Assembly: GCA_002395775.1 (NCBI GenBank)
Contig: DGUV01000075.1
Location: forward strand, 30,677 to 94,676
From: Prevotellaceae bacterium UBA4301
GTDB lineage: Bacteria; Bacteroidota; Bacteroidia; Bacteroidales; Bacteroidaceae
DNA: 64,000 nt
Direction of reading: 5' to 3'
The notes under the pieces are model-generated. The model did not search any database. It saw only the letters and a list, made by a program, of their open reading frames with translations, and had not been told where the DNA came from. Numbering within the stretch: position 1 is the stretch's first letter; each line of letters opens with the position of its first letter. The position numbers and the translations under genes were made by a program. Below are positions 2,973 through 43,927 of this stretch, piece after piece.

Positions 2973-4409
2973 ATGGCTAAGGACAAAGTGATGTACGTCT
3001 GCTCGGAATGTGGACAGGAAGCAACGAAGTGGGTGGGCAAGTGCCCGGCCTGCGGACAGTGGAACACCATGAAGGAATTCAAAGTCGGTCCCTCTCCCCG
3101 CTCCTCTCGCGGGGGAGAGAGCCTCGCCCTACACTTGCAGGGCAGGGAGCGTCCACAGTTGTTACAGGACATTCGGGCCGACCAGGAAGTGCGCATCGAC
3201 ATGGGCGACCAAGAGCTCAACCGTGTCCTGGGCGGTGGACTGGTGCAGGGCAGCCTCGTCCTGCTTGGCGGCGAACCGGGCATCGGCAAGAGCACACTCA
3301 TCCTGCAAACCGTCCTCCGCCTTCGTGGCAAGAAGGTGCTCTACATCAGCGGGGAAGAAAGCGCCCGCCAAATCAAACTTCGCGCCGACCGTCTCTCTCC
3401 CTCACGGGGGGAGCAGGGAGAGGGGCTTCTCATCCTATGCGAAACCTCTCTCGAGGCCATCTACGAACACATCCAGGAGGAACAGCCCGACCTGGTGGTC
3501 ATCGACTCCATTCAGACCATCTCCACCGATTCCGTAGAATCCTCCCCGGGTAGCCTCAGCCAAATACGCGAATGCGCCGCCTCCTTGTTGAAGTTTGTCA
3601 AATCGTCAGGACAAGCCCTCCCCCCCACGGGCGAAGCGGGAAGAGGGACCGGACCAAGCTGTTCCATCATCCTCATCGGCCACATCACCAAGGAGGGCAC
3701 GCTGGCCGGGCCCAAGGTGCTGGAGCACATCGTCGATTGCGTCCTCCAGTTCGAGGGCGACCAGCACTACATGTACCGCATCCTGCGCAGTCAGAAGAAC
3801 CGCTTCGGCAGCACCTCCGAACTGGGCATCTATGAAATGTTGCAAGGCGGCCTGCGCCAAGTTTCCAACCCCAGCGAGCTCCTTCTCACCGAAGGCCGGG
3901 AGGGACTGAGCGGCATCGCCATCTGTTCGGCCATCGAGGGCGTGCGTCCGCTCCTCATCGAGACTCAGGCGCTGGTCTCCACCGCAGCCTACGGCACTCC
4001 GCAGCGCTCCGCCACGGGTTTCGACACGCGTCGCTTGGCCATGCTTCTGGCCGTACTGGAGAAGCGCGTGGGCTTCAAACTGGCGCAGAAGGATGTCTTC
4101 CTCAACATCGCCGGCGGACTGCGCGTCACCGACCCTGCCATGGACCTCAGCGTCATCGCGGCCGTCCTTTCCAGCAATGTGGACGCGGCCATCGAAGCCG
4201 ACACCTGCATGTGTGGCGAAGTGGGTCTCTCGGGTGAGATTCGTCCCGTGGCCCGCCTCGAACAGCGCATTGCCGAAGCCGAGAAACTGGGCTTCCGCCG
4301 CATGCTCGTCCCGGCACAAAGCTTCAAGGGCATCAATCAGGACCGACTCAACATAGAGATTGTTCCCGTCCGCCGCGTCGCCGAGGCCGTAAGGGCACTC
4401 TTCGGATAA
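2973..4409 (+). CDS. radA: DNA repair protein RadA
   Basis: It has an N-terminal zinc ribbon (CSECGQEATKWVGKCPACGQWNT), a Walker A motif (GGEPGIGKST), the KNRFG motif, and a Lon-like C-terminal domain. Confidence 0.95.
   Translation: MAKDKVMYVCSECGQEATKWVGKCPACGQWNTMKEFKVGPSPRSSRGGESLALHLQGRERPQLLQDIRADQEVRIDMGDQELNRVLGGGLVQGSLVLLGGEPGIGKSTLILQTVLRLRGKKVLYISGEESARQIKLRADRLSPSRGEQGEGLLILCETSLEAIYEHIQEEQPDLVVIDSIQTISTDSVESSPGSLSQIRECAASLLKFVKSSGQALPPTGEAGRGTGPSCSIILIGHITKEGTLAGPKVLEHIVDCVLQFEGDQHYMYRILRSQKNRFGSTSELGIYEMLQGGLRQVSNPSELLLTEGREGLSGIAICSAIEGVRPLLIETQALVSTAAYGTPQRSATGFDTRRLAMLLAVLEKRVGFKLAQKDVFLNIAGGLRVTDPAMDLSVIAAVLSSNVDAAIEADTCMCGEVGLSGEIRPVARLEQRIAEAEKLGFRRMLVPAQSFKGINQDRLNIEIVPVRRVAEAVRALFG
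3088..3150. repeat. Family A GC-rich palindromic arm(s), in-frame in radA
   Basis: cctctccccgctcctctcgcgggggagagag plus gccctacacttgcagggc. Encodes GPSPRSSRGGESLALHLQGRE in the linker after the zinc finger. Confidence 0.7.
3393..3427. repeat. Family A arm, in-frame in radA
   Basis: ctctctccctcacggggggagcagggagaggggct. Its reverse complement nearly equals the mnmA left arm. Encodes SPSRGEQGEG. Confidence 0.75.
3614..3650. repeat. Family A arm, in-frame in the radA ATPase domain
   Basis: agccctcccccccacgggcgaagcgggaagagggacc encodes ALPPTGEAGRGTG. Compare the mnmA right arm, which encodes [11 protein letters not shown]. Confidence 0.8.
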
Positions 4410-4453
4410 GTCAAATTTCCGGGTAAAGGTTTGGTGCATTTCCAAAATATGTT

Positions 4454-4461
4454 TATCTTTG
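4454..4461 (+). promoter_or_regulatory. -7 promoter box TATCTTTG
   Basis: TAnnTTTG match 31 nt upstream of the small ORF that starts at 4492. Confidence 0.5.
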
Positions 4462-4491
4462 TCCCATAATATAATATAAAGAAGAGAGAAT

Positions 4492-4668
4492 ATGCCTGCT
4501 ATTGGAGACCGCATGAGGGTTAGTCCTCAGCTTACTGCACAACCCGACTGGATAGACGGTGAAGTCATCGATGTCGAACAGAACCCCTTCTTGGGACTGG
4601 TCATATCCATTAAGGACAAACTTGGTCGCATCTTCTTTGGCCAAAGTCGATATTTCGTAGCCCTCTAA
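4492..4668 (+). CDS. Small hypothetical protein (58 aa) immediately upstream of vapD
   Basis: ATG..TAA ORF read by hand (MPAIGDRMRVSPQLTAQPDWIDGEVIDVEQNPFLGLVISIKDKLGRIFFGQSRYFVAL). Its stop lies 3 nt before the vapD ATG. It is absent from the supplied ORF list, which contains no ORF shorter than 60 aa. Confidence 0.45.
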   Translation: MPAIGDRMRVSPQLTAQPDWIDGEVIDVEQNPFLGLVISIKDKLGRIFFGQSRYFVAL

Positions 4669-4671
4669 GTC

Positions 4672-4953
4672 ATGTTTGCCATTGCGTTTGACATGGACAT
4701 CAAGGAACTCCGTAGCACCTATGGAGAGCCATATAATAACGCCTATTACGAAATCAAGATAATCCTGCGCAATTATGACTTCTATAATGCACAGGGCAGT
4801 GTCTATCTCACAGACAAAGACGATATGGCCAATCTCTTCGCTGCTATTCTTGCACTGAAGAACACACCATGGTTCAAAGCCGCCGTCCGTGACATCCGCG
4901 CCTTCAAGGTTGAAAACTGGTCGGATTTCACAAATCTTGTGAAGGACATCTGA
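4672..4953 (+). CDS. vapD: Virulence-associated protein D (VapD, Cas2-superfamily endoribonuclease)
   Basis: 93 aa with MFAIAFDMD...GSVYLT...DMANLF...VRDIRAFKVENWSDFT, matching the VapD family signature as I remember it. It sits in an AT-rich islet. Confidence 0.8.
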   Translation: MFAIAFDMDIKELRSTYGEPYNNAYYEIKIILRNYDFYNAQGSVYLTDKDDMANLFAAILALKNTPWFKAAVRDIRAFKVENWSDFTNLVKDI

Positions 4954-6629: not shown

Positions 6630-6635
6630 GAGATT

Positions 6636-7721: not shown

Positions 7722-7739
7722 CCAACCCCTTACGGGCAA

Positions 7740-7880
7740 GATTCCCAATCATCGCCGAATCACTACCCAATCATCGCAAATTTACTTACCAATGATGAGC
7801 CGATGATTGGTAAGTGATTTCGTGATCATTGGTAATCTATTTTCTGATCATTGGGAATCTATTTCCTGATGATTGGGAAC
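7740..7880. repeat. Dyad-symmetric array of 22-bp-spaced CCAATSATS boxes
   Basis: Three cccaatcatcg-type boxes start at 7744, 7766 and 7788. Four inverted gatsattgg boxes have their attgg cores at 7806, 7828, 7850 and 7873. The symmetry centre is near 7800. Confidence 0.85.
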
Positions 7881-17093: not shown

Positions 17094-17300
17094 GGACATT
17101 GAACAAAAACCAAGAAAACACTTTGACGGAGCCTCGATTTAACAAAAACATAGAAAACACTTTGATGAAGTGGGAGGACTTCCAGTCCTCTGACCTAAGC
17201 CTCGTATAAGCTATCATGAGCAAGCTCACATAGCCTATACAACACTTCGGTCACACATTCGTGTTCCCACTTCTTCAAAGAAAAACCAAGAAAAATTATT
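17094..17300 (+). repeat. Left copy of a 207-bp direct repeat
   Basis: About 97 percent identical to 18003..18208, at an offset of 909 bp. It contains an internal 32-bp tandem unit (aacaaaaacNaagaaaacactttgaNg) and a hairpin (gaggacttccagtcctc). Confidence 0.9.
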
Positions 17301-18002: not shown

Positions 18003-18208
18003 GGACATTGAACAAAAACCAAGAAAACACTTTGACGGAGCCTCGATTTAACAAAAACATAGAAAACACTTTGATGAAGTGGGAGGACTTCCAGTCCTCT
18101 GACCTAAGCCTCGTATAAGCTATCATGAGCAAGCTCACATAGCCTATACAATACTTCGGTCACACATTCGTGTACCCACTTCTTCAAAGAAAAACAAGAA
18201 AAAACTAT
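18003..18208 (+). repeat. Right copy of the 207-bp direct repeat
   Basis: Starts 7 nt after the GxxExxY stop codon. Weaker homology continues for another 200 bp or so on both copies. Confidence 0.9.
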
Positions 18209-18531
18209 TTCCTTGTTATGCCCTGCGGTATCAATATATGGTTTTCAAGGTTTTCATTGATGAAGCGCCTAGAACGAAGTGAAGCTATTGGGCCGTGAAT
18301 GGTGGTGGGAACTTGTTCACAAATACCATACACGGAACAAGAGAGGAAGGGCCGACAGGACATCTTGCGCTTCAACAATAGGTTTTATTGGTTTTCTTTG
18401 ATGAATCAACATGCCCTCACGCGCGTACGCGCATACATTAAATAATATTATATATGGGGGGGGTATATGGCTACGGCCTATAGGCTGCGGCACACGAAGA
18501 ACAATTGCACATTAAGCCATAAACGGGATGT

Positions 18532-19296: not shown

Positions 19297-19303
19297 TTCT
19301 TAA

Positions 19304-19332
19304 GGAGTTAACGACCTGCGGTCGAGGAGTTA
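19304..19332. repeat. Family D module (GGAGTTAA-hairpin-GGAGTTA), inverted relative to 19835..19948
   Basis: ggagttaa cgacc tgc ggtcg a ggagtta. Confidence 0.8.
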
Positions 19333-19441
19333 TATTGGGAGTTATGTGGGGAGTTATATTGGGAGTTATATTGGGAGTTATGTGGGGAGTTATGTGGGGA
19401 GTTATGTGGGGAGTTATTGTTCACTGGAGTTATGTTGAGAC
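19326..19441. repeat. 12-bp tandem repeat (GGAGTTATRTKG), 7 units plus 2 degenerate units
   Basis: Units start at 19326, 338, 350, 362, 374, 386 and 398. Degenerate units start at 19410 and 19426. The array overlaps the last codons of the four-helix-bundle ORF. Confidence 0.9.
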
Positions 19442-19812
19442 TTGGCGGTAGAGGCCGAGGATTTCTCTCTTATTCCCTTGCAATAGGCATTAAGGTATAC
19501 GCTAGCACCTTCAAGAGAGTGATTGAGTTCTTCATGTTCTTCAGAACTAATGTAATCCAGATCGCGAGAAAGCATAATATAAAAACGACATTCTTCCAAA
19601 CTGCCTTGGGCAATGTTAAGGAAACGAAGTTTATCAGCTATGCTGAGCTTTTTATATCCTTCGGCAATATTAGCCGTTATTGATACGGCAGCTCTTTGGA
19701 ATTGTGACGCAAGACCATAACGCTCATAATCTGGGAATTTACGAGTTACTTTGTAAGTCATTAGCACAAACTCATAAGCCTTCTGCCATGCAATTATATC
19801 CTTGAATGTCAT
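19414..19812 (-). CDS. Four-helix-bundle protein (23S rRNA intervening-sequence protein / Avd-like family)
   Basis: 132 aa with WQKAYEFVLMTYKVTRKFP...RAAVSITANIAEGY...LNIAQGSLEE, the family signature. Confidence 0.85.
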   Translation of the reverse strand: MTFKDIIAWQKAYEFVLMTYKVTRKFPDYERYGLASQFQRAAVSITANIAEGYKKLSIADKLRFLNIAQGSLEECRFYIMLSRDLDYISSEEHEELNHSLEGASVYLNAYCKGIREKSSASTAKSQHNSSEQ

Positions 19813-19834
19813 GTATTCTTTTTTTATTACCTTT

Positions 19835-19948
19835 TAACTCCTCGACCAAAGGTCGTTAACTCCTTTTATTACCTTTTAACTCCTCAACTATGGTTGTTAA
19901 CTCCTTGCTCAAGGAGCATTAACTCCTCGACCAAAGGTCGTTAACTCC
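19835..19948. repeat. Four chained family D modules (TAACTCC-hairpin-TTAACTCC)
   Basis: Modules lie at 19835-63, 19877-904, 19898-926 and 19920-48. Their stems are cgacc/ggtcg, caac/gttg, tgctc/gagca and cgacc/ggtcg. Confidence 0.85.
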
Positions 19949-19953
19949 TTTTA

Positions 19954-20268
19954 TTACATCATCCCCAGTTCCAACTTCGCTTCTTCGGACATCATGTCCT
20001 TGTCCCACTCGGGTTCGAAGACCAGATTGACATCGACGTGGCGGAGGCCATCGATGGTCTCGAGCTTCTGGCGCACGTCCTCCATGATGAAGTCGGCGGC
20101 AGGGCAGTTGGGGGCGGTGAGCGTCATATCGACCTGAAGCTCGGTGGCATCGTCGGAGAGTTCGATGCGATAGATGAGTCCGAGGTCATAGATGTTGACG
20201 GGGATTTCGGGGTCATAGACGGTCTTGAGGAGGTCGATGACTTTTTCTTGTATCTCTATTTGGTCCAT
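19954..20268 (-). CDS. DUF59/MIP18-family Fe-S cluster assembly protein (SufT/PaaD-like)
   Basis: VYDPEIPVNIYDLGLIY...MTLTAPNCPAA. The start was set at the ATG at 20268 to avoid overlap with radC. Confidence 0.75.
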   Translation of the reverse strand: MDQIEIQEKVIDLLKTVYDPEIPVNIYDLGLIYRIELSDDATELQVDMTLTAPNCPAADFIMEDVRQKLETIDGLRHVDVNLVFEPEWDKDMMSEEAKLELGMM

Positions 20269-20305: not shown

Positions 20306-21070
20306 TCATATCTTCCCTTGTTCGCGATAGCTGTAGTAGCCTGTGTCGGCAACGATGATGTGGTCGGTGAACTGGATGTTCATGGTCTCACAGGCCGACT
20401 GTACGGAGCGGGTGAGGCGGTCGTCCTCGCGACTGGGGCGGAGATTGCCGCTGGGATGGTTGTGGCAAAGGATGAGGGCGGTGGCCCGTTGGAGCAGGGC
20501 CTGGCGCATGACCTCGCGCACATCGACGGCGGTGCCTGCGATGCCTCCGCGACTGATGAGGGCAGAGGAGATGATGCTGTGGTTTTGGCGCAGGAAGAGC
20601 ACGCGGCACTCCTCGAGCGGAAGGTCGCGCATGTCGGCAAAGTATTCGTAGGCCTGACTGCTGTCGGTGATGCAGCGGCGCGACACCACTTCCTCGCGAC
20701 GCCGACGGCTGCCCAGTTCGCAGGCTGCGAGCAGGGTGATGGCCTTGGCCTCGCCGATGCCCTTGTAGCGACTGGTGAGGTCGTTGATGGAGAGGCGTCC
20801 CAGGGCATTGAGACTGTTGTCGCAGTCGTGCAGGACGCGTTGCATGAGTCCGACGGCTGTCTCCTCGGCATTGCCGCTGCCGATGAGTATGGCCAGCAGC
20901 TCGGCATCGGAGAGGGCTGCGGACCCGTGGGCCATCATCTTCTCACGAGGGCGTGCGTCAAGGGGGAGGGATTTTATTGTTAATGATTTTCTTCCAATAG
21001 AAGGCTCACCCCCTTGCCCCTCCCTATTAAGGAGGGGGAATGTTACGTCTAATGTCCCGGTCTTTTTCAT
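20306..21070 (-). CDS. radC: RadC-family JAB/MPN domain protein
   Basis: SLPLDARPREKM, AELLAILIGSG and the JAMM motif HNHPSGNLRPSREDDRLT. The first ATG is at 21070 and the longer ORF begins with TTG. Confidence 0.85.
   Translation of the reverse strand: MKKTGTLDVTFPLLNREGQGGEPSIGRKSLTIKSLPLDARPREKMMAHGSAALSDAELLAILIGSGNAEETAVGLMQRVLHDCDNSLNALGRLSINDLTSRYKGIGEAKAITLLAACELGSRRRREEVVSRRCITDSSQAYEYFADMRDLPLEECRVLFLRQNHSIISSALISRGGIAGTAVDVREVMRQALLQRATALILCHNHPSGNLRPSREDDRLTRSVQSACETMNIQFTDHIIVADTGYYSYREQGKI
21003..21042. repeat. Family A arm inside the radC 5' coding end
   Basis: ggctcacccccttgcccctccctattaaggagggggaatg. On the minus strand it encodes TFPLLNREGQGGEPS, ahead of the conserved RadC N-terminal motif. 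Confidence 0.65.
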
Positions 21071-21082
21071 TACAACAATTTT

Positions 21083-21122
21083 TAACTCCTGCGCCAAAGG
21101 CGCTTAACTCCCCTTTAACTCC
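21083..21122. repeat. Family D module plus an extra TAACTCC box
   Basis: taactcc tgcgcc aaa ggcgc ttaactcc cctt taactcc. The stem differs from other copies but stays complementary. Confidence 0.8.
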
Positions 21123-22246: not shown

Positions 22247-22295
22247 CAAAGGTACGAATAAGCCATCAAAATACCAAACATGTTTGGGCATTTTC
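22247..22295 (-). repeat. Family B promoter-like module, including -7 box TACCTTTG at 22247-22254
   Basis: caaaggtacgaataagccatcaaaataccaaacatgtttgggcatttt resembles the copies at 45876.. and 31040... Confidence 0.65.
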
Positions 22296-27304: not shown

Positions 27305-28266
27305 CCATCATCTGCGGAGGGGACTCTGCAGAACATGATGTCAGCATGCGCAGTGCAGCCGGCATCGAATCGTTCCTCGACAAGGAGCGCTACACGGTTT
27401 ACAAAGTAGAGATACACGCCCGTCACTGGGAAGCCATACTTGGTGACGGAAGCCGGAGCAAGGTGGACCGCAACGACTTCACCTTCCTGGACAACGGGAA
27501 ACAGGTGAAGCCCGACTACGCCTATATCACCATCCACGGTGCCCCGGGCGAGAATGGTGTCCTGCAGGGCTACTTCGACCTGATAGGTATGCCCTACTCC
27601 ACCTGCAACGTACTCGTCGAGGCCATGACCTACGACAAGTTTGTGCTGAACACCTACATGCGTGGCCTGGGCGTGAGCGTAGCCGACAGTCTGACCGTGA
27701 AGATTGGTCACGACAAGGAAGTGAGCGACGAGGACATCATCTCGCGCATCGGCCTGCCCTGCTTCGTGAAGCCCGCACGCGGCGGAAGCAGTTTCGGTAC
27801 CACAAAGGTGAAGACGCCCGAGCAGTTGCGCCCGGCCATCGAGGTGGCCCTGAAGGAGGGCGAGGACGTGATGGTGGAAGCCTTCATGCAAGGCACGGAA
27901 CTCACCTGCGGCTGCTACAAGACACGGACGGGCGGCCACGTGTTCCCCATCACGGAAGTGGTCTCGAAGAACGAATTCTTCGACTATGCCGCCAAATACA
28001 ACAACGAAAGCGACGAAATCACTCCGGCCCGCATCTCCGACCGTCTCACTGAACGCGTGCAGCAACTGACCTCGATGATCTATGACATCCTGGGCTGCCA
28101 CGGCATCATCCGCATCGACTACATCATCACCGAGGGCGAAAAGATTAATCTCTTGGAAATCAACACCACGCCGGGCATGACGGCCACCAGCTTCATTCCC
28201 CAGCAGGTGCGTGCCGCCGGGCTGGACATCAAGGATGTGCTGACGGAGATTATTGAGGATAAATAG
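27286..28266 (+). CDS. ddl: D-alanine--D-alanine ligase
   Basis: MEKKTIAIICGGDSAEHDVS...HGAPGENG..QG... with an ATP-grasp C-terminal half. Confidence 0.9.
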   Translation: MEKKTIAIICGGDSAEHDVSMRSAAGIESFLDKERYTVYKVEIHARHWEAILGDGSRSKVDRNDFTFLDNGKQVKPDYAYITIHGAPGENGVLQGYFDLIGMPYSTCNVLVEAMTYDKFVLNTYMRGLGVSVADSLTVKIGHDKEVSDEDIISRIGLPCFVKPARGGSSFGTTKVKTPEQLRPAIEVALKEGEDVMVEAFMQGTELTCGCYKTRTGGHVFPITEVVSKNEFFDYAAKYNNESDEITPARISDRLTERVQQLTSMIYDILGCHGIIRIDYIITEGEKINLLEINTTPGMTATSFIPQQVRAAGLDIKDVLTEIIEDK

Positions 28267-28404
28267 GCCCCTACCCCCAATCCCCTCCCGAGGGAGGGGC
28301 GTGAACACAGGCATAAAGATAAGTTACAATATATGAATATCGGGAAAAACATAATTAGCAATAATGCCCACTCCTCCCCCTCGGAGGAGGTCGGAAGAGG
28401 GGCC
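28266..28404. repeat. Family A inverted doublet (REPIN/MITE-like) spanning the ddl-acyltransferase junction
   Basis: Left arm: ggcccctacccccaatcccctcccgagggaggggcg. Right arm: gcccactcctccccctcggaggaggtcggaagaggggcc. The reverse complement of the right arm resembles the left arm. A 64-bp AT-rich core between them contains the ATG at 28333. Confidence 0.7.
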
Positions 28405-29589
28405 ATTGGGAGTTCGGAATTCGACCAAATCCGCCCTTACAACGATGACGAGGTGAAGGAGGCCATCGAGAGTTTGCTTCAGGACCGACAGTTTTCGCGC
28501 ATTCTCAAGCGAATCCTTCCTCTCTTGCCCTTGGGCATGAGTCGCGGCGTGCTGAAACTGGCCACGCTGGGCATACACTCGACGCTCGACTTCCAGCTGC
28601 GATTCATGAAGCCTGTGGTAAACTACATCCTGCGGAAGTGCTCGACGGGCCACACCTTCCGGCACGACGGCATTACGCCTGGTCCGGACCGCTACACCTT
28701 CATCAGCAACCATCGCGACATTGTGCTCGACAGTGCCATCCTGGACGTGATGCTCCACGATGCCAAGTTCCCAACCACCTGTGAGATAGCCATCGGCGAC
28801 AATCTCCTGATATATCCCTGGATTCGCACACTGGTGCGACTGAACAAGGCCTTCATCGTGCGGCGCAACATCTCGCGTCGCGAACTCTTCGAGAGCAGTC
28901 TGCTCATGAGCCGATACATGCACCATGTCATTCAGGAGAAGCGGGAGAACATCTGGATAGCCCAGCGCGAAGGCCGGGCCAAGGATTCGAGCGACCACAC
29001 ACAGGAGGCGCTGCTGAAGATGCTGACCCTCGCAGGCACAGAGGGCACAGAGAAGACCGAGGGCACGGAGTCTTTGCAGGAAAGCATCCGGCAGTTGAAC
29101 ATCGTTCCGCTATCGATAAGCTACGAATACGACCCTTGCGACTATCTGAAGGCTAAGGAGTTCCAGCAGAAGCGCGACGATGCCTCGTGGAAGAAATCGA
29201 AACAGGACGACCTCACGAACATGAAGACGGGCATCTTCGGAAAGAAAGGCCATGTGCACTACCAGACCGGGCGACCCGTGAACGAGTGGATAGACGAACT
29301 GAAGGACCTTGACAAGAGCGAGTTCTATGCCGAACTGGCCCGTCGCATCGACATTGAGATCTATCGCAACTACCGTCTGTTCCCAGGCAACTATGTGGCC
29401 GCCGACCTGCTTGCCAATCGACCCTCCCATGCCAGTCAGTACACCCACAAGGACAAGGTAACCTTTGAAAAATACATAAAGGAACGCATGGCCTTGGTGG
29501 ACTTGTCCAACCGAGACGAGGACTTCCTGCGCGAACGTCTGCTCACCATGTATGCCAATCCCGTACTGAACTATGAAAAGACGATATAA
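28333..29589 (+). CDS. Glycerol/lysophospholipid acyltransferase family protein
   Basis: 418 aa with the HX4D motif SNHRDIVLDSA. The first 24 or so codons lie inside the family A doublet. Confidence 0.7.
   Translation: MNIGKNIISNNAHSSPSEEVGRGAIGSSEFDQIRPYNDDEVKEAIESLLQDRQFSRILKRILPLLPLGMSRGVLKLATLGIHSTLDFQLRFMKPVVNYILRKCSTGHTFRHDGITPGPDRYTFISNHRDIVLDSAILDVMLHDAKFPTTCEIAIGDNLLIYPWIRTLVRLNKAFIVRRNISRRELFESSLLMSRYMHHVIQEKRENIWIAQREGRAKDSSDHTQEALLKMLTLAGTEGTEKTEGTESLQESIRQLNIVPLSISYEYDPCDYLKAKEFQQKRDDASWKKSKQDDLTNMKTGIFGKKGHVHYQTGRPVNEWIDELKDLDKSEFYAELARRIDIEIYRNYRLFPGNYVAADLLANRPSHASQYTHKDKVTFEKYIKERMALVDLSNRDEDFLRERLLTMYANPVLNYEKTI
29032..29070. repeat. GGCACAGAG (GTE) short tandem repeat, in-frame
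   Basis: gcaggcacagagggcacagagaagaccgagggcacggag encodes AGTEGTEKTEGTE. It shares a 17-nt identical core with the reverse complement of 294..326. Confidence 0.75.
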
Positions 29590-30976: not shown

Positions 30977-31039
30977 ACAAAATAGTTTTAGTGTACGCAA
31001 AGATACGATTTTTTCCTGGCACGGCCGCATTTCAAAAGT

Positions 31040-31170
31040 CAGAAAACGGCAAAGTTCTTTGTTTTTTCGCTCGCTTAATCGTACCTTTAACCTGCGGTTT
31101 TAGGTACTACCGCTCGGAAAAAACAAAAGTTCTTTGTTTTTTCGCTCGCTTAATCGTACCTTTGTGCCCA
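31040..31170 (+). repeat. Family B: duplicated promoter-like module with a hairpin, upstream of mnmA
   Basis: agttctttgttttttcgctcgcttaatcgtaccttt occurs twice. The first copy runs into the palindrome gtacctttaacc tgc ggttttaggtac. The second copy ends in the -7 box TACCTTTG (31157-31164). Confidence 0.8.
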
Positions 31171-31182: not shown

Positions 31183-32430
31183 ATGAAGAATATAGCTGTA
31201 CTGATATCGGGCGGCGTGGACAGCGCCGTAGTGGTTCACCAATTGTGTGAACACGGTTACAAACCCGACCTTCATTATATTAAGATAGGTATGGAAGGCG
31301 AGGACTCGTCTTGCTCGGCCGAGGAGGATATTGAACTCTCGCAGGCCACGGCAAGGAAGTATGGTCTGAAGCTGGAAGTCACCGACCTGCAGAAAGAATA
31401 CTGGGAAAAGGTGGTGGGCTATGCCATAGAGCGCGTGAAGGAAGGACTGACGCCGAACCCCGACGTAATGTGCAACCGACTCATCAAGTTCGGAGCCTTC
31501 GAGGAACGCATCGGCAAGGATTACGACCTCGTGGCAACGGGGCACTATGCAACACGCAAGGCCCCTCTCCCTGCTCCCCCCGTGGGGGGGAGAGTCTTGC
31601 CTTTCCTGTTGAATGATGTTGAACTAAAGACAGAAACGCTGGAGGACATTGCCCTCGAAGGAGAAGCCCTCCCCCCCACGGGGGGAGCGGGGAGAGGGGC
31701 CATTTTTCTGGGCACCGCCAAGGACCCCGTGAAGGACCAGACGGACTTCCTTGCCCAACTCACCTACGAACAACTCCAGCATACCATCTTCCCCATTGGT
31801 CACCTAATGAAGGAAGAGGTGCGGGACATTGCCATCCGGGCAGGATTGCCCAGTGCGCGCCGTAAGGACAGTCAGGGCATCTGCTTCCTGGGCAAGATAA
31901 ACTACAACGACTTCCTGCGCCGTTTTCTGGGCGAACAGGAAGGCCGCATCATCGACATTGAGACGGGTAAGGTGGTGGGTAGGCACCGGGGATTCTGGTT
32001 CCACACCATCGGGCAGCGCAAGGGATTGGGACTGAGCGGCGGCCCCTGGTTCGTGGTGAAGAAGAACGTCAAGAAGAACATTGTCTTCGTGGCCCGCGGC
32101 TGGGACACGCAGTTGCAGTATGGTCACGACTTCCGCCTGGCCGACATGCACTTCATCACAAGCAATCCTTGGGAAGAAGAGACGAATGAAGAGGGGAACG
32201 TGAAGCGCGGAGAATCAGAATTAATCAAGAAGGGCTTGCCCATTTCGTTCAAGATTCGGCACGTCGATCACTTCATGCCCGGCATCATCACACTGGACGA
32301 CGAAGGCTATCACATCCACTCCGACGAACCCATTCAGGGCATTGCCCCCGGCCAGTTCGGATGCATCTACGACGCCGAACACCGCATCTGCTACGGCAGT
32401 GGCGAGATAGCCATATACAAAGACCGATAA
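31183..32430 (+). CDS. mnmA: tRNA 2-thiouridine(34) synthase MnmA
   Basis: It has the PP-loop [29 protein letters not shown] and [10 protein letters not shown]. The start was set at the ATG at 31183. The upstream ORF extension is translated repeat sequence. Confidence 0.9.
31561..31700. repeat. Family A inverted doublet inserted in-frame in mnmA
   Basis: Left arm: gcccctctccctgctccccccgtgggggggagag. The reverse complement of the right arm is gcccctctccccgctccccccgtgggggggagggc. The core is about 70 bp. The region encodes [47 protein letters not shown]. Confidence 0.85.
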
Positions 32431-34209: not shown

Positions 34210-34845
34210 TTACAATCTGGTTACGTTTGGTCTTGTAATCATATTGTAATGAGTCATCAGCCTGCGCCATTTGAAGTAACCAAAGACTGCAATAATGACG
34301 TAGAGGCCGTAGAGCGAGGCCTTGAAGGGAATGTCCTTGTAGAAATAAAGCACACAGGTGACCACATCGACGGCTATCCAAATGAACCACTGTTCCAGAT
34401 ATTTGTGTGCCAATGCCCAGATGCCCAGGATGCTGAGGGCCGTCGTGAAGGAGTCGGCAAGGGGCACGTTGGAATTGGTGAACGTAACGAGCAGCCAATA
34501 AATGGTGGCCCACACCGCAGCCGTGAGCAACAGCCACGGCAAGACAAGGCGACGCGGGAAATGGCATATGGGCCTCTCCCCACCCCCTCCCTCAAGGGAA
34601 GGGGCTTCCACTCCCCCAACGGCTTTGACAGGGCGGAGCCAACGCCACCAACCGTAGATGGTCATCAACAGATAGTAGAACTCCATGCCGCAGTCGGCAT
34701 AGAGTCCTTTCTGATAGTAAAGCACGATGCCCAGGCTCTGCATGAGGAATCCTACGAACCACATCCAGATGCTGGCCTTGAACTCCAGCAGAATGTAGGC
34801 CAAGCCGAGCAGGGTGGTGACGATGTCAAGCCAATTCACAGACAT
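34210..34845 (-). CDS. PnuC-family transporter, probably the thiamine-type PnuT given the operon riboswitch
   Basis: 211 aa multi-pass protein with YGWWRW and a WxxxxNxxLA-like segment. It lies downstream of the TonB receptor, under a TPP riboswitch. Confidence 0.75.
   Translation of the reverse strand: MSVNWLDIVTTLLGLAYILLEFKASIWMWFVGFLMQSLGIVLYYQKGLYADCGMEFYYLLMTIYGWWRWLRPVKAVGGVEAPSLEGGGGERPICHFPRRLVLPWLLLTAAVWATIYWLLVTFTNSNVPLADSFTTALSILGIWALAHKYLEQWFIWIAVDVVTCVLYFYKDIPFKASLYGLYVIIAVFGYFKWRRLMTHYNMITRPNVTRL
34570..34616. repeat. Family A arm, in-frame in the PnuC-family gene
   Basis: ggcctctccccaccccctccctcaagggaaggggcttccactccccc. On the minus strand it encodes GGVEAPSLEGGGGERP, in the loop after YGWWRW. 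Confidence 0.7.
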
Positions 34846-34848
34846 AGC

Positions 34849-34973
34849 GGCCCCCTCCCCTTACCCTCCCCGAGGGGAGGGAGTTGATACTTACATATAG
34901 AATTATCTTCTGCCATATTTTCCTCTTATTTGTAACCACTCCCCTCCCCTCGGGAGGGGTAAGGGGGTGGGGC
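34849..34973. repeat. Family A inverted doublet, between the TonB receptor and PnuC-family cistrons
   Basis: Left arm: ggccccctccccttaccctccccgaggggagggag. The reverse complement of the right arm is gccccacccccttacccctcccgaggggaggggagtgg. The AT-rich core is 52 bp. Confidence 0.85.
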
Positions 34974-34978
34974 TTCGA

Positions 34979-37435
34979 TTAGAACTTGAGCGTCACGCTG
35001 CCCATTGCCGTGAAGCCAGCCATGGGAACATAGCCAATCTGATAATAACGGTTCTGCTCGGGATAGTCACTGCCGACGATGGCCGAGTACACCCAGCCCG
35101 ACGAAGCATAGCGACGATTGAAGATGTTGCGCAAATCGACACCGAAGACGATGTGCTTCAGACCTTTTCTCATTTTCTCATTTCCTCCACCTCTCATTTT
35201 CAGGTCATATCCCAGGTGGATGTTGGTCTGCGTGTACTTGGGCAGCGACCGATCCTTGTTGCAGGTGTTGTCGAGATACTGTCGCGAGACGAAGTTGGTG
35301 TGCCACGTAGCCTCGAAGCCCTTGACGTGGAAGTCGGCAAAACCATTCAGTATGGCCGCAGGCGAGAAGGCGAGCGTGGAATTGTCGTAGTGGACGGTGG
35401 TGGCCGGAAGGTCGTTCCAGTCGGCATCGTAGGTCTCTACGACCTCGTCGAAGTCACGAATCGTATTCTTGCTGATGGCGGCATTGGCTTCCAGAGAGAA
35501 CCACTTCGTCACATCTACTCCGGCCGACAGCTCCATGCCCAGCCTGTAGCTGCGATGGATGTTGGTGGTCAGTTTCTCACCGATGTCACTGTAGAGGCCC
35601 GTCTGCACGAACTGGTTGTCGTAGTACATCGAGTAGAGCCCGATGCCGGCGTGCCAGCGACTGCCTTGATAGTTGTAACCCAGTTCCACGTCGTGCAGGC
35701 TCTCTGCCTTAGGGGCAGGATAGTTGCCGTTGTCGGTGAAGTTGTTGCGCTCCGGTTCACGATGGCTGAGGGCATACGACACATAGGCCGAATGGCCATT
35801 CTGGTGGAACGAGATGCCCACCTTGGGGTTCAGGAAGTCGTACTGTTTCTTGATGTCGAGGAGATGGGCCTTGTAGGTGCCGTCCGCCTGCTTCACGAAA
35901 CTGTCGTGCGTGCCGCTGGTTATATATCCCACATGGCGATACTGCACGTCGGCAAAGGCATCCCAGGCCTTCGTGATGTGGAACATGCCCTTGAGGAAGA
36001 TTTGTCCGTCGGTCTTCGTGGCATCGTTGTCGTAGTAGTGATACCAGCCATGCTTGTCGCTGAAGAGGTCGGCCTGCAACTGGTCGTTGCTGGTGTAGGT
36101 AAGGTAACCATAGTGGTTGGCCTCGAAGTTCTGCAGCGAGACTCCGCCGATGACATCCCAACGGTTGTCCTGATAGTTGACGTTCCACACCATTCCGTAG
36201 CCGTCCTGCTTCATGCCCTTGCGGCGCACGTAGTCGGCCTTGCCCAGCGATGAGCCGTCGGAGAGCACCTCGGGCAGACCAAACTTCTTGGGCTTATTCT
36301 GGAGACGGAAACTCTGGTAGTAGCCGTGTCCGTGGGTGTAATGGAGCGTTCCGCTGGTGGTCCAGTGGTCGCTGATGTGCCACGAGAGGTTCAGCAAGTT
36401 GTGATTCTGCCAGAAGTTGTCGGTGGCACCGGGATAGAAACTTCCGTCTTTCATCTGATAGCGGCCGACAGTCCATCCGCCGTTCCAGTCGGGCGTAAAG
36501 GCTTCGTAGAGTTCGTTGTAGCGTCCGAGCCCCATCTTGTAGAGGTCCTTGTAGGTCTTCACCCCGTCGTAGGAGTTCAGACTATACTCATTGTCGCCCG
36601 GGCATACGCCGTTCCAGGCCTGTCCCGTCCGCTCGTAGTTACCGATATTCTTGTAACTCAGCTTCAGCGTCCCATCATTATTAATATAGGTAAGGCCGCC
36701 ATAGTAACTGCCGCTCCGTCCGTCGGTGCCATGGATGAATCCGTCGGTGCGCGTTCCGTGGTAGGCGCCGTCGATGATGACACCTCCCCCGGCCCCTCCC
36801 AAGGAGGGGTGATTGTCCTTGCCCTTTTTCCTCTGCAGCAGCCCTGTGGAGAACGAGCCGCCGAAGTTCCAGGTGTTGTAGGAACCGCCCGAGGCCGAAA
36901 GTTCGAGCGAGGGGAAGGGGTTCGGGGCCTTCGTTTGCAGGGCCACCGTACCGCCAAAGGCTCCGTCACCATTGGTAGATGTACCCACACCGCGCTGTAT
37001 CTGGACGTTGGAGAGCAAAGCTGAGTAGGAGTTCATGTTGGCCCAGAAGACACACTGGTCCTCGGGCGAATTAAGTGACACGCCGTCCAGTGTCACGTTG
37101 ATGCGCGAGTCGCCAGCCCCACGGATGCGCATGTAGGTCGTTCCCGTGCCCAGTCCGTTCTCGCTCCAGGCCATCACGCCCGGGGTGCGGGCAAAGAGGA
37201 AGGGCAGTTCCTGTCCCGTCCGGGAGAAGGTCTCCAGTTGCTTGCGGTCGATCTTCGTCACGGCAAAGGGAGCATTCGCAGGAGCCTTTACGGCCTTCAC
37301 AACTACTTCGTTCAGAGCCTCCATCTTCATTGAGTCGGAGACCTCATTCACTTGGGCAAATCCCACCTGTGTCATACTCATCATGAGCACGACAGCTACT
37401 AATTTCTGCATAGTATTCTTATTTATAATGTTCAT
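34979..37435 (-). CDS. TonB-dependent outer-membrane receptor, probably for thiamine uptake
   Basis: 818 aa with a signal peptide, a plug domain, beta-barrel repeats and a terminal aromatic residue (TLKF). It lies directly downstream of a TPP riboswitch. Confidence 0.85.
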   Translation of the reverse strand: MNIINKNTMQKLVAVVLMMSMTQVGFAQVNEVSDSMKMEALNEVVVKAVKAPANAPFAVTKIDRKQLETFSRTGQELPFLFARTPGVMAWSENGLGTGTTYMRIRGAGDSRINVTLDGVSLNSPEDQCVFWANMNSYSALLSNVQIQRGVGTSTNGDGAFGGTVALQTKAPNPFPSLELSASGGSYNTWNFGGSFSTGLLQRKKGKDNHPSLGGAGGGVIIDGAYHGTRTDGFIHGTDGRSGSYYGGLTYINNDGTLKLSYKNIGNYERTGQAWNGVCPGDNEYSLNSYDGVKTYKDLYKMGLGRYNELYEAFTPDWNGGWTVGRYQMKDGSFYPGATDNFWQNHNLLNLSWHISDHWTTSGTLHYTHGHGYYQSFRLQNKPKKFGLPEVLSDGSSLGKADYVRRKGMKQDGYGMVWNVNYQDNRWDVIGGVSLQNFEANHYGYLTYTSNDQLQADLFSDKHGWYHYYDNDATKTDGQIFLKGMFHITKAWDAFADVQYRHVGYITSGTHDSFVKQADGTYKAHLLDIKKQYDFLNPKVGISFHQNGHSAYVSYALSHREPERNNFTDNGNYPAPKAESLHDVELGYNYQGSRWHAGIGLYSMYYDNQFVQTGLYSDIGEKLTTNIHRSYRLGMELSAGVDVTKWFSLEANAAISKNTIRDFDEVVETYDADWNDLPATTVHYDNSTLAFSPAAILNGFADFHVKGFEATWHTNFVSRQYLDNTCNKDRSLPKYTQTNIHLGYDLKMRGGGNEKMRKGLKHIVFGVDLRNIFNRRYASSGWVYSAIVGSDYPEQNRYYQIGYVPMAGFTAMGSVTLKF
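36781..36811. repeat. Family A arm, in-frame in the TonB receptor gene
   Basis: cacctcccccggcccctcccaaggaggggtg. On the minus strand it encodes HPSLGGAGGGV. Confidence 0.7.
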
Positions 37436-37437
37436 AC

Positions 37438-37514
37438 TCTCTACGCCAGCATTACCTGGTTCAGATTCTTAGGGTCTGTTCTCAGCCACGCCAAAAGACG
37501 AGGCACCCCTGATT
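37438..37514 (-). promoter_or_regulatory. TPP (THI-box) riboswitch
   Basis: The minus strand reads caggggtgcctcgtcttttggcgtggctgagaacagaccctaagaatctgaaccaggtaatgctggcgtagagag. The GGGGUGC, CUGAGA, ACCC and GAACC..GGUAAUGC..GCG elements appear in the canonical order. The element ends 2 nt before the ATG. Confidence 0.85.
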
Positions 37515-37522
37515 AACGACTG

Positions 37523-41966: not shown

Positions 41967-42008
41967 ATCCCTTTAAGTATTAATGAAGAACTATGGTTTC
42001 AAGACAAT

Positions 42009-42043
42009 AACAGGCACACCTGCATGATACGGGTGTGCCTGTT
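42009..42043 (-). terminator. Hairpin after the acyl-CoA dehydrogenase gene
   Basis: aacaggcacacc ... ggtgtgcctgtt forms a 12-bp perfect stem 10 nt downstream of the stop codon. Confidence 0.6.
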
Positions 42044-42052
42044 GATATAGGT

Positions 42053-43792
42053 TTACGCCTGACGGTAGTTGTCGATGCTTTCGCTGGTCATGCGGCAAAC
42101 GAGGGAGGCATGCTTCTCCACTTCAGCCTCAGCCAGGTTGACATACACCTGCAGGCTCTTGGCAAAGAGCTCGGGGCAACTAACGGCGTTCTGCAGGAGC
42201 AGGAGCGACATGATGACATCAGCAGCCATCTCATAGAGGTGACGGGCACAGAGGTCGTGGACCACGTTCTTGTCCTCGCCTGCAGCCTCGGCACGCTCCT
42301 GGGCTTCCTTCACCTGAGCGATGGCTGCGTTGAACTTGTCAGCCATAGCGCGCAGACGGGCAACGTAAGTCTGGCACTCAGCAGGAACTTCCTGAGCCAG
42401 CATTTCCTCAATGACCTGACTGTACAGGCCCGTAGTGACATAGCGGATGGCAGCCACGGTCTGCAACTGTGTGGTACCCTCGTAGATGCTGGTAATGCGG
42501 GCATCGCGATAGATGCGCTGGCAGGCATATTCGAGCATGAAGCCTGAACCGCCGTGCACCTGAATGCAGTCGTAGCCGTTCTGGTTGGCATACTCCGAAT
42601 TCATACCCTTGGCCAGGGGCGTGAAGGCATCGGCCAGGCGGCTGTACTTCTTCAGTTCCTGACGCTCTTCGGGCTCCAGTTTGCGGTCGCGGGCAATGTC
42701 CTCCAGGGCCTTGTAGATATCGACGTAGCGAGCGGTCTGGTACAGCAGGGCACGACCGGCATCCAGACGGGCCTTGATGTTGCTAATCATCTCTGCCACA
42801 GCGGGGAACTCGATGATGGCCTTGCCGAACTGCTTGCGGTCGCGCGCATAGGCCAGGGCTTCGTTGTAGGCAGCCTGAGAGAGGCCTACCGACTGGGCAG
42901 CGATACCCAGACGTGCACCGTTCATCAGCGACATGACGTACTTGATCAGTCCCAGCTTGCGGTCACCGCAGAGTTCGCACTTGGCATTCTTATAGACCAG
43001 TTCGCAGGTTGGCGACCCGTGGATACCAAGTTTGTTCTCGATGCGGCGCACGTTCACGCCTCCGTCGCGCTTGTCGTAGATGAACATCGACAGGCCACGA
43101 CCGTCGCGCGTGCCAGCCTCGGAGCGAGCCAGTACGAGATGGATGTCCGAGTCGCCGTTGGTGATGAAGCGCTTCGAGCCATTCAAGCGCCAGCATTGGT
43201 TTTCCTCGTCGTAGGTGGCCTTGAGCATAACGCTCTGCAGGTCGGAACCGGCATCGGGCTCAGTGAGGTCCATGGACATGGTCTCGCCGGCACAAACACG
43301 GGGGATATACTTCTGACGCTGTTCTTCGTTACCGAAGCAATAGAGTGTCTCGATGCAGTCCTGCAGAGACCAGATGTTCTCGAATCCGGCATCACCGGCG
43401 CTGACGATTTCATTGGCAGCAGTATAGACCGTGACGGGCAGGTTCAGGCCACCGTAGCGGCGGGGCATGGTCATGCCGTTCAGGCCAGCCTGGCGCATAG
43501 CATCCAGGTTCTCGTAGGTCTTCTCGGCATAGCGCACACGACCGTTCTCGCAGTGGGGGCCTTCGGCATCCACTGCCTCAGCGTTGGGTGCCACGATATT
43601 ACCAACAATGTCGCCCACAACGTCCAGCACCTTGTCATATGAGTCCATGGCATCTGCCACGTCCTGCGGTGCTTCGTCATACTGGTCCTTGTCGGCGAAA
43701 TTGCGTTCTTTCAGCTCCACGATGCGCTGCATCAGCGGACTGTTCTCCAGTTCGAACTTTATCTCTGGAATATCAGTATAGTAATTACTCAT
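42053..43792 (-). CDS. Acyl-CoA dehydrogenase (long form)
   Basis: 579 aa with EPDAGSD, GSKRFITNG, QVHGGSGF and IYEGT motifs. It lies downstream of etfB-etfA. Confidence 0.85.
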   Translation of the reverse strand: MSNYYTDIPEIKFELENSPLMQRIVELKERNFADKDQYDEAPQDVADAMDSYDKVLDVVGDIVGNIVAPNAEAVDAEGPHCENGRVRYAEKTYENLDAMRQAGLNGMTMPRRYGGLNLPVTVYTAANEIVSAGDAGFENIWSLQDCIETLYCFGNEEQRQKYIPRVCAGETMSMDLTEPDAGSDLQSVMLKATYDEENQCWRLNGSKRFITNGDSDIHLVLARSEAGTRDGRGLSMFIYDKRDGGVNVRRIENKLGIHGSPTCELVYKNAKCELCGDRKLGLIKYVMSLMNGARLGIAAQSVGLSQAAYNEALAYARDRKQFGKAIIEFPAVAEMISNIKARLDAGRALLYQTARYVDIYKALEDIARDRKLEPEERQELKKYSRLADAFTPLAKGMNSEYANQNGYDCIQVHGGSGFMLEYACQRIYRDARITSIYEGTTQLQTVAAIRYVTTGLYSQVIEEMLAQEVPAECQTYVARLRAMADKFNAAIAQVKEAQERAEAAGEDKNVVHDLCARHLYEMAADVIMSLLLLQNAVSCPELFAKSLQVYVNLAEAEVEKHASLVCRMTSESIDNYRQA

Positions 43793-43797
43793 AATCA

Positions 43798-43927
43798 GAC
43801 CCCCTCCCCGCTCCCCCTTGTTGGGGGAGAGTAGAATGATTTGTGGGAGGGTATTCTACTTCAAAAATATAATAATAATGAAATGTAACCGCTCCCCGCC
43901 CTACAAGGGAGGGGCCGGGGGCGGGTC
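43798..43927. repeat. Family A inverted doublet between etfA and the acyl-CoA dehydrogenase gene
   Basis: Left arm: gaccccctccccgctcccccttgttgggggagag. The reverse complement of the right arm is gacccgcccccggcccctcccttgtagggcggggagcgg. The core is AT-rich. Confidence 0.8.

Follow-up and report, generated by a model that had tools for sequence, protein, structure and literature searches.

Palindromic DNA that settles inside genes without breaking them is best known from the Rickettsia palindromic elements (RPEs; Ogata et al. 2000, 2002, as cited in PMC10969869), which a 2024 review names as the outstanding in-frame case (PMC10969869). Three other described systems lie close by. Repetitive extragenic palindromes (REPs), their inverted doublets (REPINs) and the REP-associated tyrosine transposases (RAYTs) have been treated by Bertels & Rainey 2011 (PMC3116915) and Di Nocera et al. 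2013 (PMC3733652). MITEs, or miniature inverted-repeat transposable elements, of prokaryotes are about 90% intergenic according to a census (PMC11602168), and the Vsr/DUF559 clade of nucleases includes homing endonucleases (PMC3424549, PMC3239194, PMC2677866). The subject here is a family of hairpin repeats in a 64,000-nucleotide stretch of Prevotellaceae bacterium UBA4301 (GenBank assembly GCA_002395775.1, contig DGUV01000075.1, positions 30,677 to 94,676 of the forward strand), called the window below, whose G+C content is 52%. One repeat unit, about 45 nt long, is referred to as an arm. The window holds 14 related arms, and in related genomes such arms flank genes for the DUF559 nuclease domain. 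The arms are probably the solo and paired terminal repeats of a Bacteroidota-specific mobile-element family in which the full unit is arm-DUF559-arm.

In one orientation an arm runs (A)(A/G)GCCCCTCNCCC, 2-5 nt, a C-rich stem of 7-9 nt, a loop of 2-7 nt and an exactly complementary G-rich stem, so that a perfect C-run/G-run hairpin of 7-9 bp lies between an outer A-R-GCCCCTCNCCC extension and a short inner segment. It occurs in two flavours, family 1 (GGCCCCTCTCCCYG-CTCCCCCC-GTG-GGGGGGAG) and family 2 (G(G/A)CCCNCCCCC..CCCCTCCC-GA-GGGAGGGG), and no arm contains a stop codon in any frame. A de novo repeat search of the window recovered the family independently (repeats D6, D11, D13, I5, I6, I8, I11, I18, I19 and I24), and an nhmmer profile of 13 arms scores 17.6-34.0 bits on those arms. 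These scored arms are also the training set of the profile, and for that reason independent support comes from the pairwise repeats and from external matches to a 24-mer of the arm. The fourteenth arm, weaker and older, lies inside PnuC (profile match 34573-34604, 7.9 bits). An earlier note, written from the letters of this DNA, had described at least 14 related arms in two flavours and four inverted doublets; repeat search and profile confirm the arms, and all four doublets are present where it placed them. Chance was one alternative it raised, and it does not reproduce the arms, the best profile match in 20 second-order Markov shuffles of the window being 7.5 bits. The AT-rich cores it attributed to the doublets are found in three of the window doublets but not in the one inside mnmA.

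Folded as a single strand, the mnmA doublet forms a long hairpin (−52.8 kcal/mol, z = −8.2), as does the doublet at 34846-34977 (z = −6.0). Folding is weaker for the doublets at 43794-43931 (z = −2.7) and 28262-28408 (z = −1.5), and the old solo arms of radA have lost their stems. The arms had no Rfam match in the window scan at gathering and E-value thresholds, nor any match in scans of IMG/VR, phages and plasmids.

Nine arms lie in frame in six genes (three in radA, two in mnmA and one each in radC, an acyltransferase gene, PnuC and a TonB receptor gene), and none of the nine brings a stop codon or a frameshift into its host. Nine or more in-frame arms in seven genes had been proposed; the number of arms stands, while the hosts come to six, ddl being merely touched at its stop codon by arm A5. 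The accompanying claim that no frame is broken proved right, and all five peptides quoted with it are present. The radA gene (2973-4409) carries three family-1 solo arms. A1 (3087..3128, plus strand, 23.6 bits), with a degraded hairpin, is in frame in the linker that follows the zinc finger (GPSPRSSRGGESL); A2 (3385..3427, minus strand, 27.9 bits) is in frame in the RecA-like domain (SPSRGEQGEG) and is 94% complementary to an mnmA arm; and A3 (3608..3651, minus strand, 21.1 bits), whose hairpin has decayed, forms a 16-aa insert (QALPPTGEAGRGTGPS). Compared with the RadA of S. pneumoniae, the three sites hold 7, 4 and 16 extra residues. Prevotella orthologues that are 75-88% identical have these sites filled, empty or otherwise filled, and orthologue lengths span 411-526 aa in the match tables, or 455-526 aa at 100% query coverage.

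The mnmA gene (31183-32430, 415 aa) encloses a whole doublet, the only fully intragenic one in the window, made of the family-1 arms A7 (31560..31603, plus strand, left, 34.0 bits) and A8 (31658..31701, minus strand, right, 28.3 bits). Residues 125-173 of the protein are unmatched, and solved MnmA structures have about 8 residues there. Orthologues measure 350-476 aa in the match tables; an empty one (P0043) has 365 aa against the 415 aa of the window protein, and the shortest form of the loop reads HYATRV-EHD-GLVWLGTAKDP. In alignments to solved structures the inserts of both RadA and MnmA fall between the aligned blocks.

The remaining in-frame arms are solo copies or half of a doublet at a gene start. 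The TonB-dependent receptor has the family-2 solo arm A11 (36778..36819, plus strand, 25.2 bits) within a 45-nt in-frame insert (HPSLGGAGGG), which the 87% identical orthologue of locus L093 lacks. PnuC contains the old, family-2-like solo arm A14 (34570..34607, plus strand, 7.9 bits; APSLEGGGGERP), which encodes the peptide APSLEGGGGE and is common to the L093 orthologue. Family-2 solo arm A4 (21002..21050, plus strand, 22.2 bits) occupies the N-terminal extension of radC, a gene on the minus strand (FPLLNREGQGGEPS); the sole ATG, GTG or TTG starts upstream of the conserved IKSLPLDARPREK sit upstream of the arm. The doublet at 28265-28405 spans the ddl stop and the acyltransferase start: the first bases of its left arm A5 (28265..28306, plus strand, 17.6 bits) overlap the ddl stop codon (TAG, 28264-28266), the acyltransferase start codon (ATG, 28333) lies in the doublet core, and the right arm A6 (28361..28405, minus strand, 25.6 bits) is read in the N-terminal part of the acyltransferase (HSSPSEEVGRGA). 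From this arm to the conserved FDQIRPYNDDEV, whose differences from the sequence of a relative are partly synonymous, no ATG, GTG or TTG occurs.

Two further doublets, 34849-34974 and 43797-43929, are outside genes and fill operon spacers almost completely from stop to start. In the first, family-2 arm A9 (34849..34885, plus strand, 25.0 bits) stands 3 nt upstream of the PnuC start codon and family-2 arm A10 (34933..34974, minus strand, 26.5 bits) 4 nt downstream of the TonB-receptor stop codon; in the L093 orthologue the spacer at this place measures 43 nt and holds no arms. A TPP (thiamine pyrophosphate) riboswitch (RF00059, 61.9 bits) at 37421-37520 on the minus strand precedes the operon of TonB-dependent receptor, doublet and PnuC-like transporter, which places the doublet between two genes of a riboswitch-controlled thiamine-type uptake operon. 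In the second, A12 (43797..43839, plus strand, 23.5 bits) adjoins the start codon of an acyl-CoA dehydrogenase (43790-43792) and A13 (43886..43929, minus strand, 20.9 bits) ends at the ETF-alpha stop codon (43929-43931).

Orthologues are polymorphic for the presence and absence of arms at the same sites in mnmA, radA, the TonB receptor, cysS and the ispG/cysS junction. The segments are absent from distant and close orthologues and from solved structures, so the possibility raised earlier that they are native sequence fails. Solo arms add 45-48 nt. Filled and empty sites differ further in that the element replaces 15-40 nt of variable linker, and no direct repeat of 2-9 nt above chance was found around 49 elements at boundary offsets of 0-2 nt, the place where a target-site duplication would appear. 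Paired arms may also enclose native sequence. The segment between the mnmA arms (..TETLEDIA..) is homologous to the arm-less loop of relatives, LADGRTETLNDLE, and in the cysS of two species a native helix is enclosed by two inverted arms, while two other species have the helix without arms.

A relative from the same sample series, with 90% protein identity and DNA flanks that are nearly the same, has family-2-like arms around another core at this mnmA site. The window site (31560-31701), L091/L092 (P0002) and L090/L093 (P0026) together display three arm-and-core cassettes, in three close relatives, in almost identical flanking DNA. Because the three cassettes differ while the DNA around them is nearly unchanged, the sequences point to cassettes being swapped by recombination more than to slow divergence. 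The same loops in rumen Prevotella also house in-frame repeats of other, unrelated families (mnmA P0042, P0047, P0037 and P0038; radA P0171, P0178 and P0139), with peptides that include SNRTPVRATLAERSG and VSSSHFSPLT; loop colonisation is therefore not confined to the arm family. A second insertion hot spot of mnmA follows NPWE.

The arm family is restricted in lineage. In a collection of species-representative genomes the exact 24-mer GCCCCTCTCCCYGCTCCCCCCGTG occurs in 85 stretches from about 20 species, all of them metagenome-assembled genomes (MAGs) of rumen Prevotella, Prevotellaceae or 'Bacteroidaceae', and on these stretches the profile finds 214 arms in 668 kb. The resulting density, about 0.2 arms per kb, is that of the window and by extrapolation would amount to several hundred arms per genome. 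The dispersed repeat family that the earlier note had suspected is borne out; it is spread over about 20 related species and lies overwhelmingly within genes. Arms in unrelated genes share identity at the DNA level, in both orientations and in three frames.

The commonest family-1 element in the relatives is a compact doublet of about 105-115 bp, with the consensus RGCCCCTCTCTAAC-TCCCCCCGTGGGGGGGA-GGACTCCTTATCCTCTGG, about 25 variable nt, and CAAGCGGAAACGCAGC-TCTCCCCCCCACGGGGGGAG-CGGGGAGAGGGGCY, and with the termini A-R-GCCCC...GGGGC-Y-T. Its length is divisible by three in 34 of 49 measured cases. Compact family-1 doublets lie within open reading frames (ORFs) that run at least 50 aa to both sides in 43 of 46 cases (93%), and each of the ten hosts sampled shows Pfam domains to either side of the insert. 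These hosts are enzymes or transporters: pyruvate formate-lyase (PFL), asparagine synthase (AsnB), ornithine/aspartate carbamoyltransferase (OTCase), GH36 melibiase, MetRS, HemN, the glycine-cleavage P protein (GcvP), a DHODH-like protein, a symporter and a TonB receptor. The family-2 doublets that have AT-rich cores lie between genes. The 44 compact copies stand at 36 distinct sites, 28 of which share one orientation and frame, with the dominant peptides PLSNSPRGGE... and PLSNSPRGGEDS(L/I)SS.... Since only two to four of the six frames are open in each copy, this bias is partly, though not wholly, explained. Some in-frame elements have undergone tandem amplification, with about three copies of a 70-nt inner unit (L004 7698-7935, L075 3652-3905); in L075 the outcome is VLPPVGGRAAQPMSSSSSQEYKE three times over, and the amplification behaves like a minisatellite within a coding repeat.

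The hairpin itself is under structural constraint and is kept by compensatory change. A perfect stem of at least 5 bp is present in 214 of 216 arms, which among them have 21 stem sequences (CTCCCCCC/GGGGGGAG, CCCCTCCC/GGGAGGGG and CCCTCCCT/AGGGAGGG are examples), and the position of the T in the C-run shifts together with that of the A in the G-run. The stems were tabulated directly over the 216 arms because a MAFFT alignment of 40 arms lost the register of the 3' stem, loop lengths being variable.

The junction between ispG and cysS shows what larger units the arms can belong to. In four species inverted family-1 arms enclose a 119-aa DUF559 ORF (PF04480, E = 2e-32); in a fifth the arms and 19 DUF559 codons are left as a deletion remnant; and in two more (L024, L037) there are neither arms nor DUF559, and the genes have ordinary ends. 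The nearest solved relatives of this DUF559 protein are 3HRL (E = 1e-19) and 3R3P (E = 4e-4), the latter being I-Bth0305I, a homing endonuclease of a mobile intron. The arms join the nuclease to its neighbours. The ispG frame continues across the left arm into DUF559 and so forms IspG-DUF559 fusion ORFs of 519-571 aa (L018 1722-3281; L076 4033-5748; L067 857-2482, minus strand). In the DUF559-bearing alleles the cysS start is an ATG inside the unit, and the frame of the gene crosses the right arm (M..SGNAVLPPTGGVREGL-LIYNTL), which gives cysS a new N-terminus. The closest homologues of the nuclease in Prevotella-like genomes are called as genes of 111-184 aa.

Four more Prevotella DUF559 genes sit in three further operon junctions, POR alpha/beta, argG/argC (two lineages) and ilvD/ilvB, and each has inverted arms on both sides. 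The hairpins there (CCTCCCC-GA-GGGGAGG) match the family-2 arms of the window. At each of the three junctions the right arm is preceded by an ATG that follows the DUF559 stop, and the downstream gene therefore reads through this arm.

A metagenome scan with the ispG/cysS DUF559 protein extended the association beyond Prevotella to 80 loci from ocean, soil and rumen samples. One of them is an identical copy, and the others are 51-70% identical. Within 160 nt of the DUF559 ends the density of C-run/G-run hairpins is 4.3 per kb, and the remainder of these loci has 0.18 per kb, which makes the enrichment 24-fold. Exact inverted repeats, up to 39 nt long and built like the window arms, link the upstream flank with the downstream one, AGCCCCACCCCAGCCCTCCCCAGTAGGGAGGG being one example. 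The profile of window arms matches the DUF559-flanking arms of L094 at 27.1 and 23.1 bits, and dispersed arms score closer to the DUF559-flanking arms of their own locus than to those of other loci (mean 19.7 vs 13.5). Hairpin arms are thus physically and specifically associated with DUF559 genes across Bacteroidota, and DUF559 is the likely partner of the repeats.

In 62 of the 80 loci DUF559 is itself embedded in frame, forming one continuous ORF with host protein on both sides. The hosts in these marine and soil Bacteroidota, identified from flanking peptides rather than Pfam, are MetH at several sites (L103, L107-L109, L112-L118 and others), a DegT aminotransferase (L162), and RibD-like (L137/L143) and RarA-like (L124) ORFs. 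Junction peptides, of the same kind as those of the compact doublets, include APSNSPNGGE - DUF559 - PPLGEQKGA (L132, L135, L138, L141) and SPLTPKGGI...APPSGAGGAG. Arms of the CTCTAAC type use the same frame in full-length units as in compact doublets (PLSNSPRGGE...). With arm-encoded flanks of only 10-20 aa, an embedded DUF559 leaves no room for a Hint domain, and the Rfam scan, which covered the window, found no intron family.

We infer from these arrangements that arm, DUF559 ORF and inverted arm make up an autonomous full-length unit, that the arm-only copies are its derivatives, and that the nuclease drives their spread. DUF559, a Vsr-like PD-(D/E)xK endonuclease, would nick or cut DNA, and repair would copy an arm-bearing template into the break by a homing-like or recombination-based route. 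Spread by break and repair would fit three observations: target-site duplications are lacking, different arm variants reuse the same sites, and short native linkers are replaced. The arm-only copies of the window and the 105-115 bp doublets of the relatives would then be non-autonomous derivatives. A copy that lands in a loop, a linker or an operon spacer would add a flexible loop, leave the gene unbroken and so persist, being tolerated because the arms lack stops, the compact doublets are mostly multiples of three and the encoded peptides are rich in Pro, Gly, Ser and Arg.

Several observations weigh against this reading. The window contains no DUF559 gene. One MAG, RGIG4948, has many perfect arms, two of them near-identical (L043), and has no DUF559 at ispG/cysS (L024) or elsewhere in its sampled loci; incompleteness of the MAG, or a copy lacking the exact 24-mer, could explain this. 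The arms around native host sequence in mnmA and cysS are not what a simple internal deletion of a full-length unit predicts. Filled and empty sites come from species pairs that are only 70-77% identical, and the variable linker is replaced without a clean junction. A hairpin is found downstream of DUF559 at 63 of 73 loci and upstream at 40 of 73, and part of the downstream signal could be terminators. A passive association is a further possibility, if arms simply favour the tight junctions in which small genes lie; the 24-fold enrichment near DUF559 speaks against it, though not decisively. Structure prediction gives little help, AlphaFold2 models from few-row alignments having a mean pLDDT (predicted local distance difference test) of 40 for mnmA (18 rows) and 51 for radA (15 rows). 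In the low-confidence radA model local dips at 39-71, 143-149 and 213-228 coincide with the arms, and there is no such coincidence in mnmA. To our knowledge, no nuclease activity, target site or transposition intermediate has been described for the arm-DUF559-arm unit.

The main rival makes the arms ordinary repeats of the REP/REPIN or MITE type, moved in trans by an unseen RAYT/IS200-like HUH or DDE transposase, with DUF559 a bystander in tight junctions. It is possible but unlikely. Inverted hairpin pairs, folding together into a single long hairpin (z = −8.2 and −6.0), are a REPIN-like build, solo arms and doublets coexist as such a reading expects, HUH elements likewise leave no target-site duplication, intragenic REPs are documented in other phyla (PMC3733652), and an arm-rich MAG lacks DUF559 at ispG/cysS. 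What the arms lack is the GTAG or CGTC tag that defines the two REP superfamilies (PMC3733652), and the transposase itself does not appear: Pfam scans of 20 window ORFs include none, and when the 1117 ORFs of the 85 arm-bearing loci are clustered all against all, only syntenic orthologues group together, with no multi-copy or transposase-like ORF. A bystander, moreover, would account poorly for the hairpin enrichment beside DUF559, for cognate inverted arms in all of the Prevotella DUF559 contexts that were examined, and also in distant Bacteroidota, or for the reading frame that compact doublets have in common with full-length DUF559 units. Less probable again is that the arms are no parasites and are kept by the host as regulatory hairpins, whether terminators, mRNA stabilisers or translational pause sites. 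Functions of this kind are on record for REPs of other bacteria (PMC3733652), intergenic doublets stand exactly at gene ends within operons, and the hairpin is preserved through compensatory changes across subfamilies, but that conservation is equally expected if a nuclease recognises the structure. Most family-1 copies are in the middle of genes for enzymes, where termination would harm, and the old radA arms persist after losing their hairpins. A host role also leaves the spread of the arms unexplained; it is compatible with nuclease-driven movement.

Invertons offer another way to read paired arms, as the repeats of segments flipped by a site-specific recombinase to switch promoters or protein segments between phases. 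Bacteroidales are rich in invertons, intragenic ones included. Three window doublets enclose AT-rich spacers just upstream of genes, and arms are able to flank native sequence; even so, the core keeps a single orientation in 46 asymmetric doublets aligned by their outer arms, and orthologous copies across assemblies show no inversion differences. The constant core orientation led us to reject a reading that we hold to be very improbable. Solo arms are moreover frequent, each arm is itself palindromic, unlike known inverton repeats, no recombinase gene is linked to the arms, and the hosts are housekeeping enzymes for which switching has no obvious use. Practically no credence is left for native low-complexity Pro/Gly linkers or convergent GC-rich sequence. 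The peptides do resemble natural linkers and several inserts are in loops that vary in all relatives (radA site 1), but the DNA identity of arms in unrelated genes, in both orientations and three frames, the exact 24-mer common to 85 loci and orthologues 87-90% identical without the segments refute it; arms occur in non-coding spacers as well, and shuffles give nothing comparable.

Taken with the nuclease-driven reading, these features may define a class of Bacteroidota mobile element for which we found no description, a proposal for which we see about as much reason to believe as to doubt: a DUF559 gene within inverted, stop-free hairpin arms of ~45 nt that encode Pro/Gly linkers, inserting in frame into essential genes, with nuclease-less derivatives that have multiplied in rumen Prevotella. 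An inserted unit would either stay one continuous ORF, as in MetH and others, or split the locus through a built-in stop and ATG restart, and would need neither intron nor intein. The derivatives, single arms and 105-115 bp doublets at roughly 0.2 arms per kb in rumen Prevotella and almost only in coding sequence, would remodel protein loops and fuse or re-head neighbouring genes.

The window holds several other repeats. A 132-aa ORF on the minus strand (19414-19812) belongs to the '23S rRNA intervening sequence protein' or bAvd-like family (PF05635) and is flanked by 31-nt inverted repeats, 19302-19332 vs 19835-19865 and 19920-19950, which are 94% complementary. A 12-nt tandem repeat, GGAGTTATNTNG, in about 8 copies (19314-19429), overlaps the left repeat, and the motif TTAACTCC recurs at 21082-21120. 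The region 19302-19957 looks like another small cassette wedged between genes. A gene-upstream repeat of 50-110 nt (CAAAGGTACGAATAAG...AAATGCCAAACNTGTTTG), found in both orientations and in tandem at 22247-22295, 31039-31168 and 45848-46182, could be a common promoter or leader module, or else a further repeat family. There are also a 207-nt direct repeat with 97% identity (17094-17300 and 18003-18209), a 169-nt repeat in three copies within ORFs that have no Pfam matches (55772-55940, 57706-57874 and 59467-59635), and a nest of CCCAATCATCG-type inverted repeats (7739-7879).

In-frame 'selfish DNA' in proteins has rested largely on Rickettsia; it now extends to free-living gut anaerobes, at a higher intragenic frequency. 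The hosts of arms and DUF559 are core enzymes, among them PFL, MetRS, MetH, IspG, CysRS, RadA and MnmA. If DUF559 does mobilise the arms, a widespread domain of unknown function gains a function, and with DUF559 as the engine the long-open question of how coding palindromes move would become directly testable. Arms move start codons, join ORFs into fusions (IspG-DUF559) and supply CysRS and ArgC with new N-termini, and because they inflate protein-length variation in MAG catalogues they affect gene callers and orthology pipelines for rumen and gut Bacteroidota. Their preferred peptide frame provides a natural set of tolerated loop insertions in proteins, and the arms are sharp strain-level markers.

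A comparison of the arms with the known systems brings out both shared build and clear differences. The earlier note had assigned them the architecture of REPINs or MITEs; the inverted hairpin doublets and terminal repeats agree with that, whereas the absence of a tag and of target-site duplications, and of a RAYT or a parent insertion sequence among the ORFs scanned, does not. Like MITEs they are small, of non-coding size, multi-copy, genus-restricted and presumably non-autonomous, with terminal inverted repeats (PMC10969869). Unlike MITEs they lack target-site duplications, and their terminal repeats are themselves hairpins. No parent insertion sequence or transposase was found among the 1117 ORFs of the arm-bearing loci, and there was no plasmid or phage match. 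Compact doublets are about 93% intragenic, while MITEs are about 90% intergenic (PMC11602168).

With REPINs the arms share hairpin singletons, inverted doublets that fold into one long hairpin (z = −8.2, −6.0 and −5.0 for three doublets), the lack of target-site duplications and the presence of several repeat flavours per genome. As in a REPtron, a small gene is flanked by cognate inverted repeats at a syntenic place, and occasional REPs inside repair genes have been reported (PMC3733652). The flanked gene, however, is a PD-(D/E)xK Vsr-like nuclease and not a RAYT, and no RAYT (Y1 HUH) gene is present among the scanned window ORFs or the 85 loci. In place of a GTAG or CGTC tag the arms have the termini A-R-GCCCC...GGGGC-Y-T. 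By definition most REPs lie outside genes, whereas the share of intragenic copies in family 1 is 93%, in frame, and the full-length arm-DUF559-arm unit is itself embedded in frame in host proteins.

DUF559 shares fold and clade with the Vsr-like (EDxHD) homing endonucleases, known from I-Bth0305I in a group I intron and from 'fractured genes' with split inteins (PMC3239194, PMC2677866). Like theirs, the DUF559 gene sits within conserved housekeeping genes, and the host gene stays functional. The DUF559 insert, however, has neither intron nor intein and is translated through its arm linkers or restarted at an internal ATG. Its unit also has hairpin terminal inverted repeats and hundreds of presumed nuclease-less derivatives. 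We know of no homing endonuclease genes that have spawned such derivatives.

The closest likeness is to the RPEs, which the earlier note had offered as the precedent, adding that it knew of nothing equivalent in Bacteroidota. That judgement fits the findings: the arms insert in frame into unrelated conserved genes and are polymorphic for presence and absence at their sites, and neither a full-text search nor the 2024 MITE review (PMC10969869) provided a precedent from Prevotella or other Bacteroidota. The same search found nothing on the arm sequences, on DUF559 with repeats or on REPIN/RAYT systems in Bacteroidetes. As far as the cited summaries describe RPEs, both are palindromic repeats, about 100-150 bp long, that sit in frame in housekeeping genes of unrelated kinds, with a preferred frame and a conserved peptide; RPEs are tolerated in loops and the arms probably are too, and both have several families per genome and one lineage each. 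The intragenic share differs, with 43 of 46 compact doublets here and, in those summaries, about half of RPEs. The arms also exist as solo 45-nt units and as pairs around native sequence, and they have a candidate autonomous form in arm-DUF559-arm, while we know of no partner for RPEs. They belong to an unrelated phylum and are probably unrelated to RPEs in sequence, being C-run/G-run hairpins that encode Pro/Gly peptides. With phylum and composition both different, homology is not expected, and the arms are best seen as a functional analogue of the RPEs and not as a member of that class.

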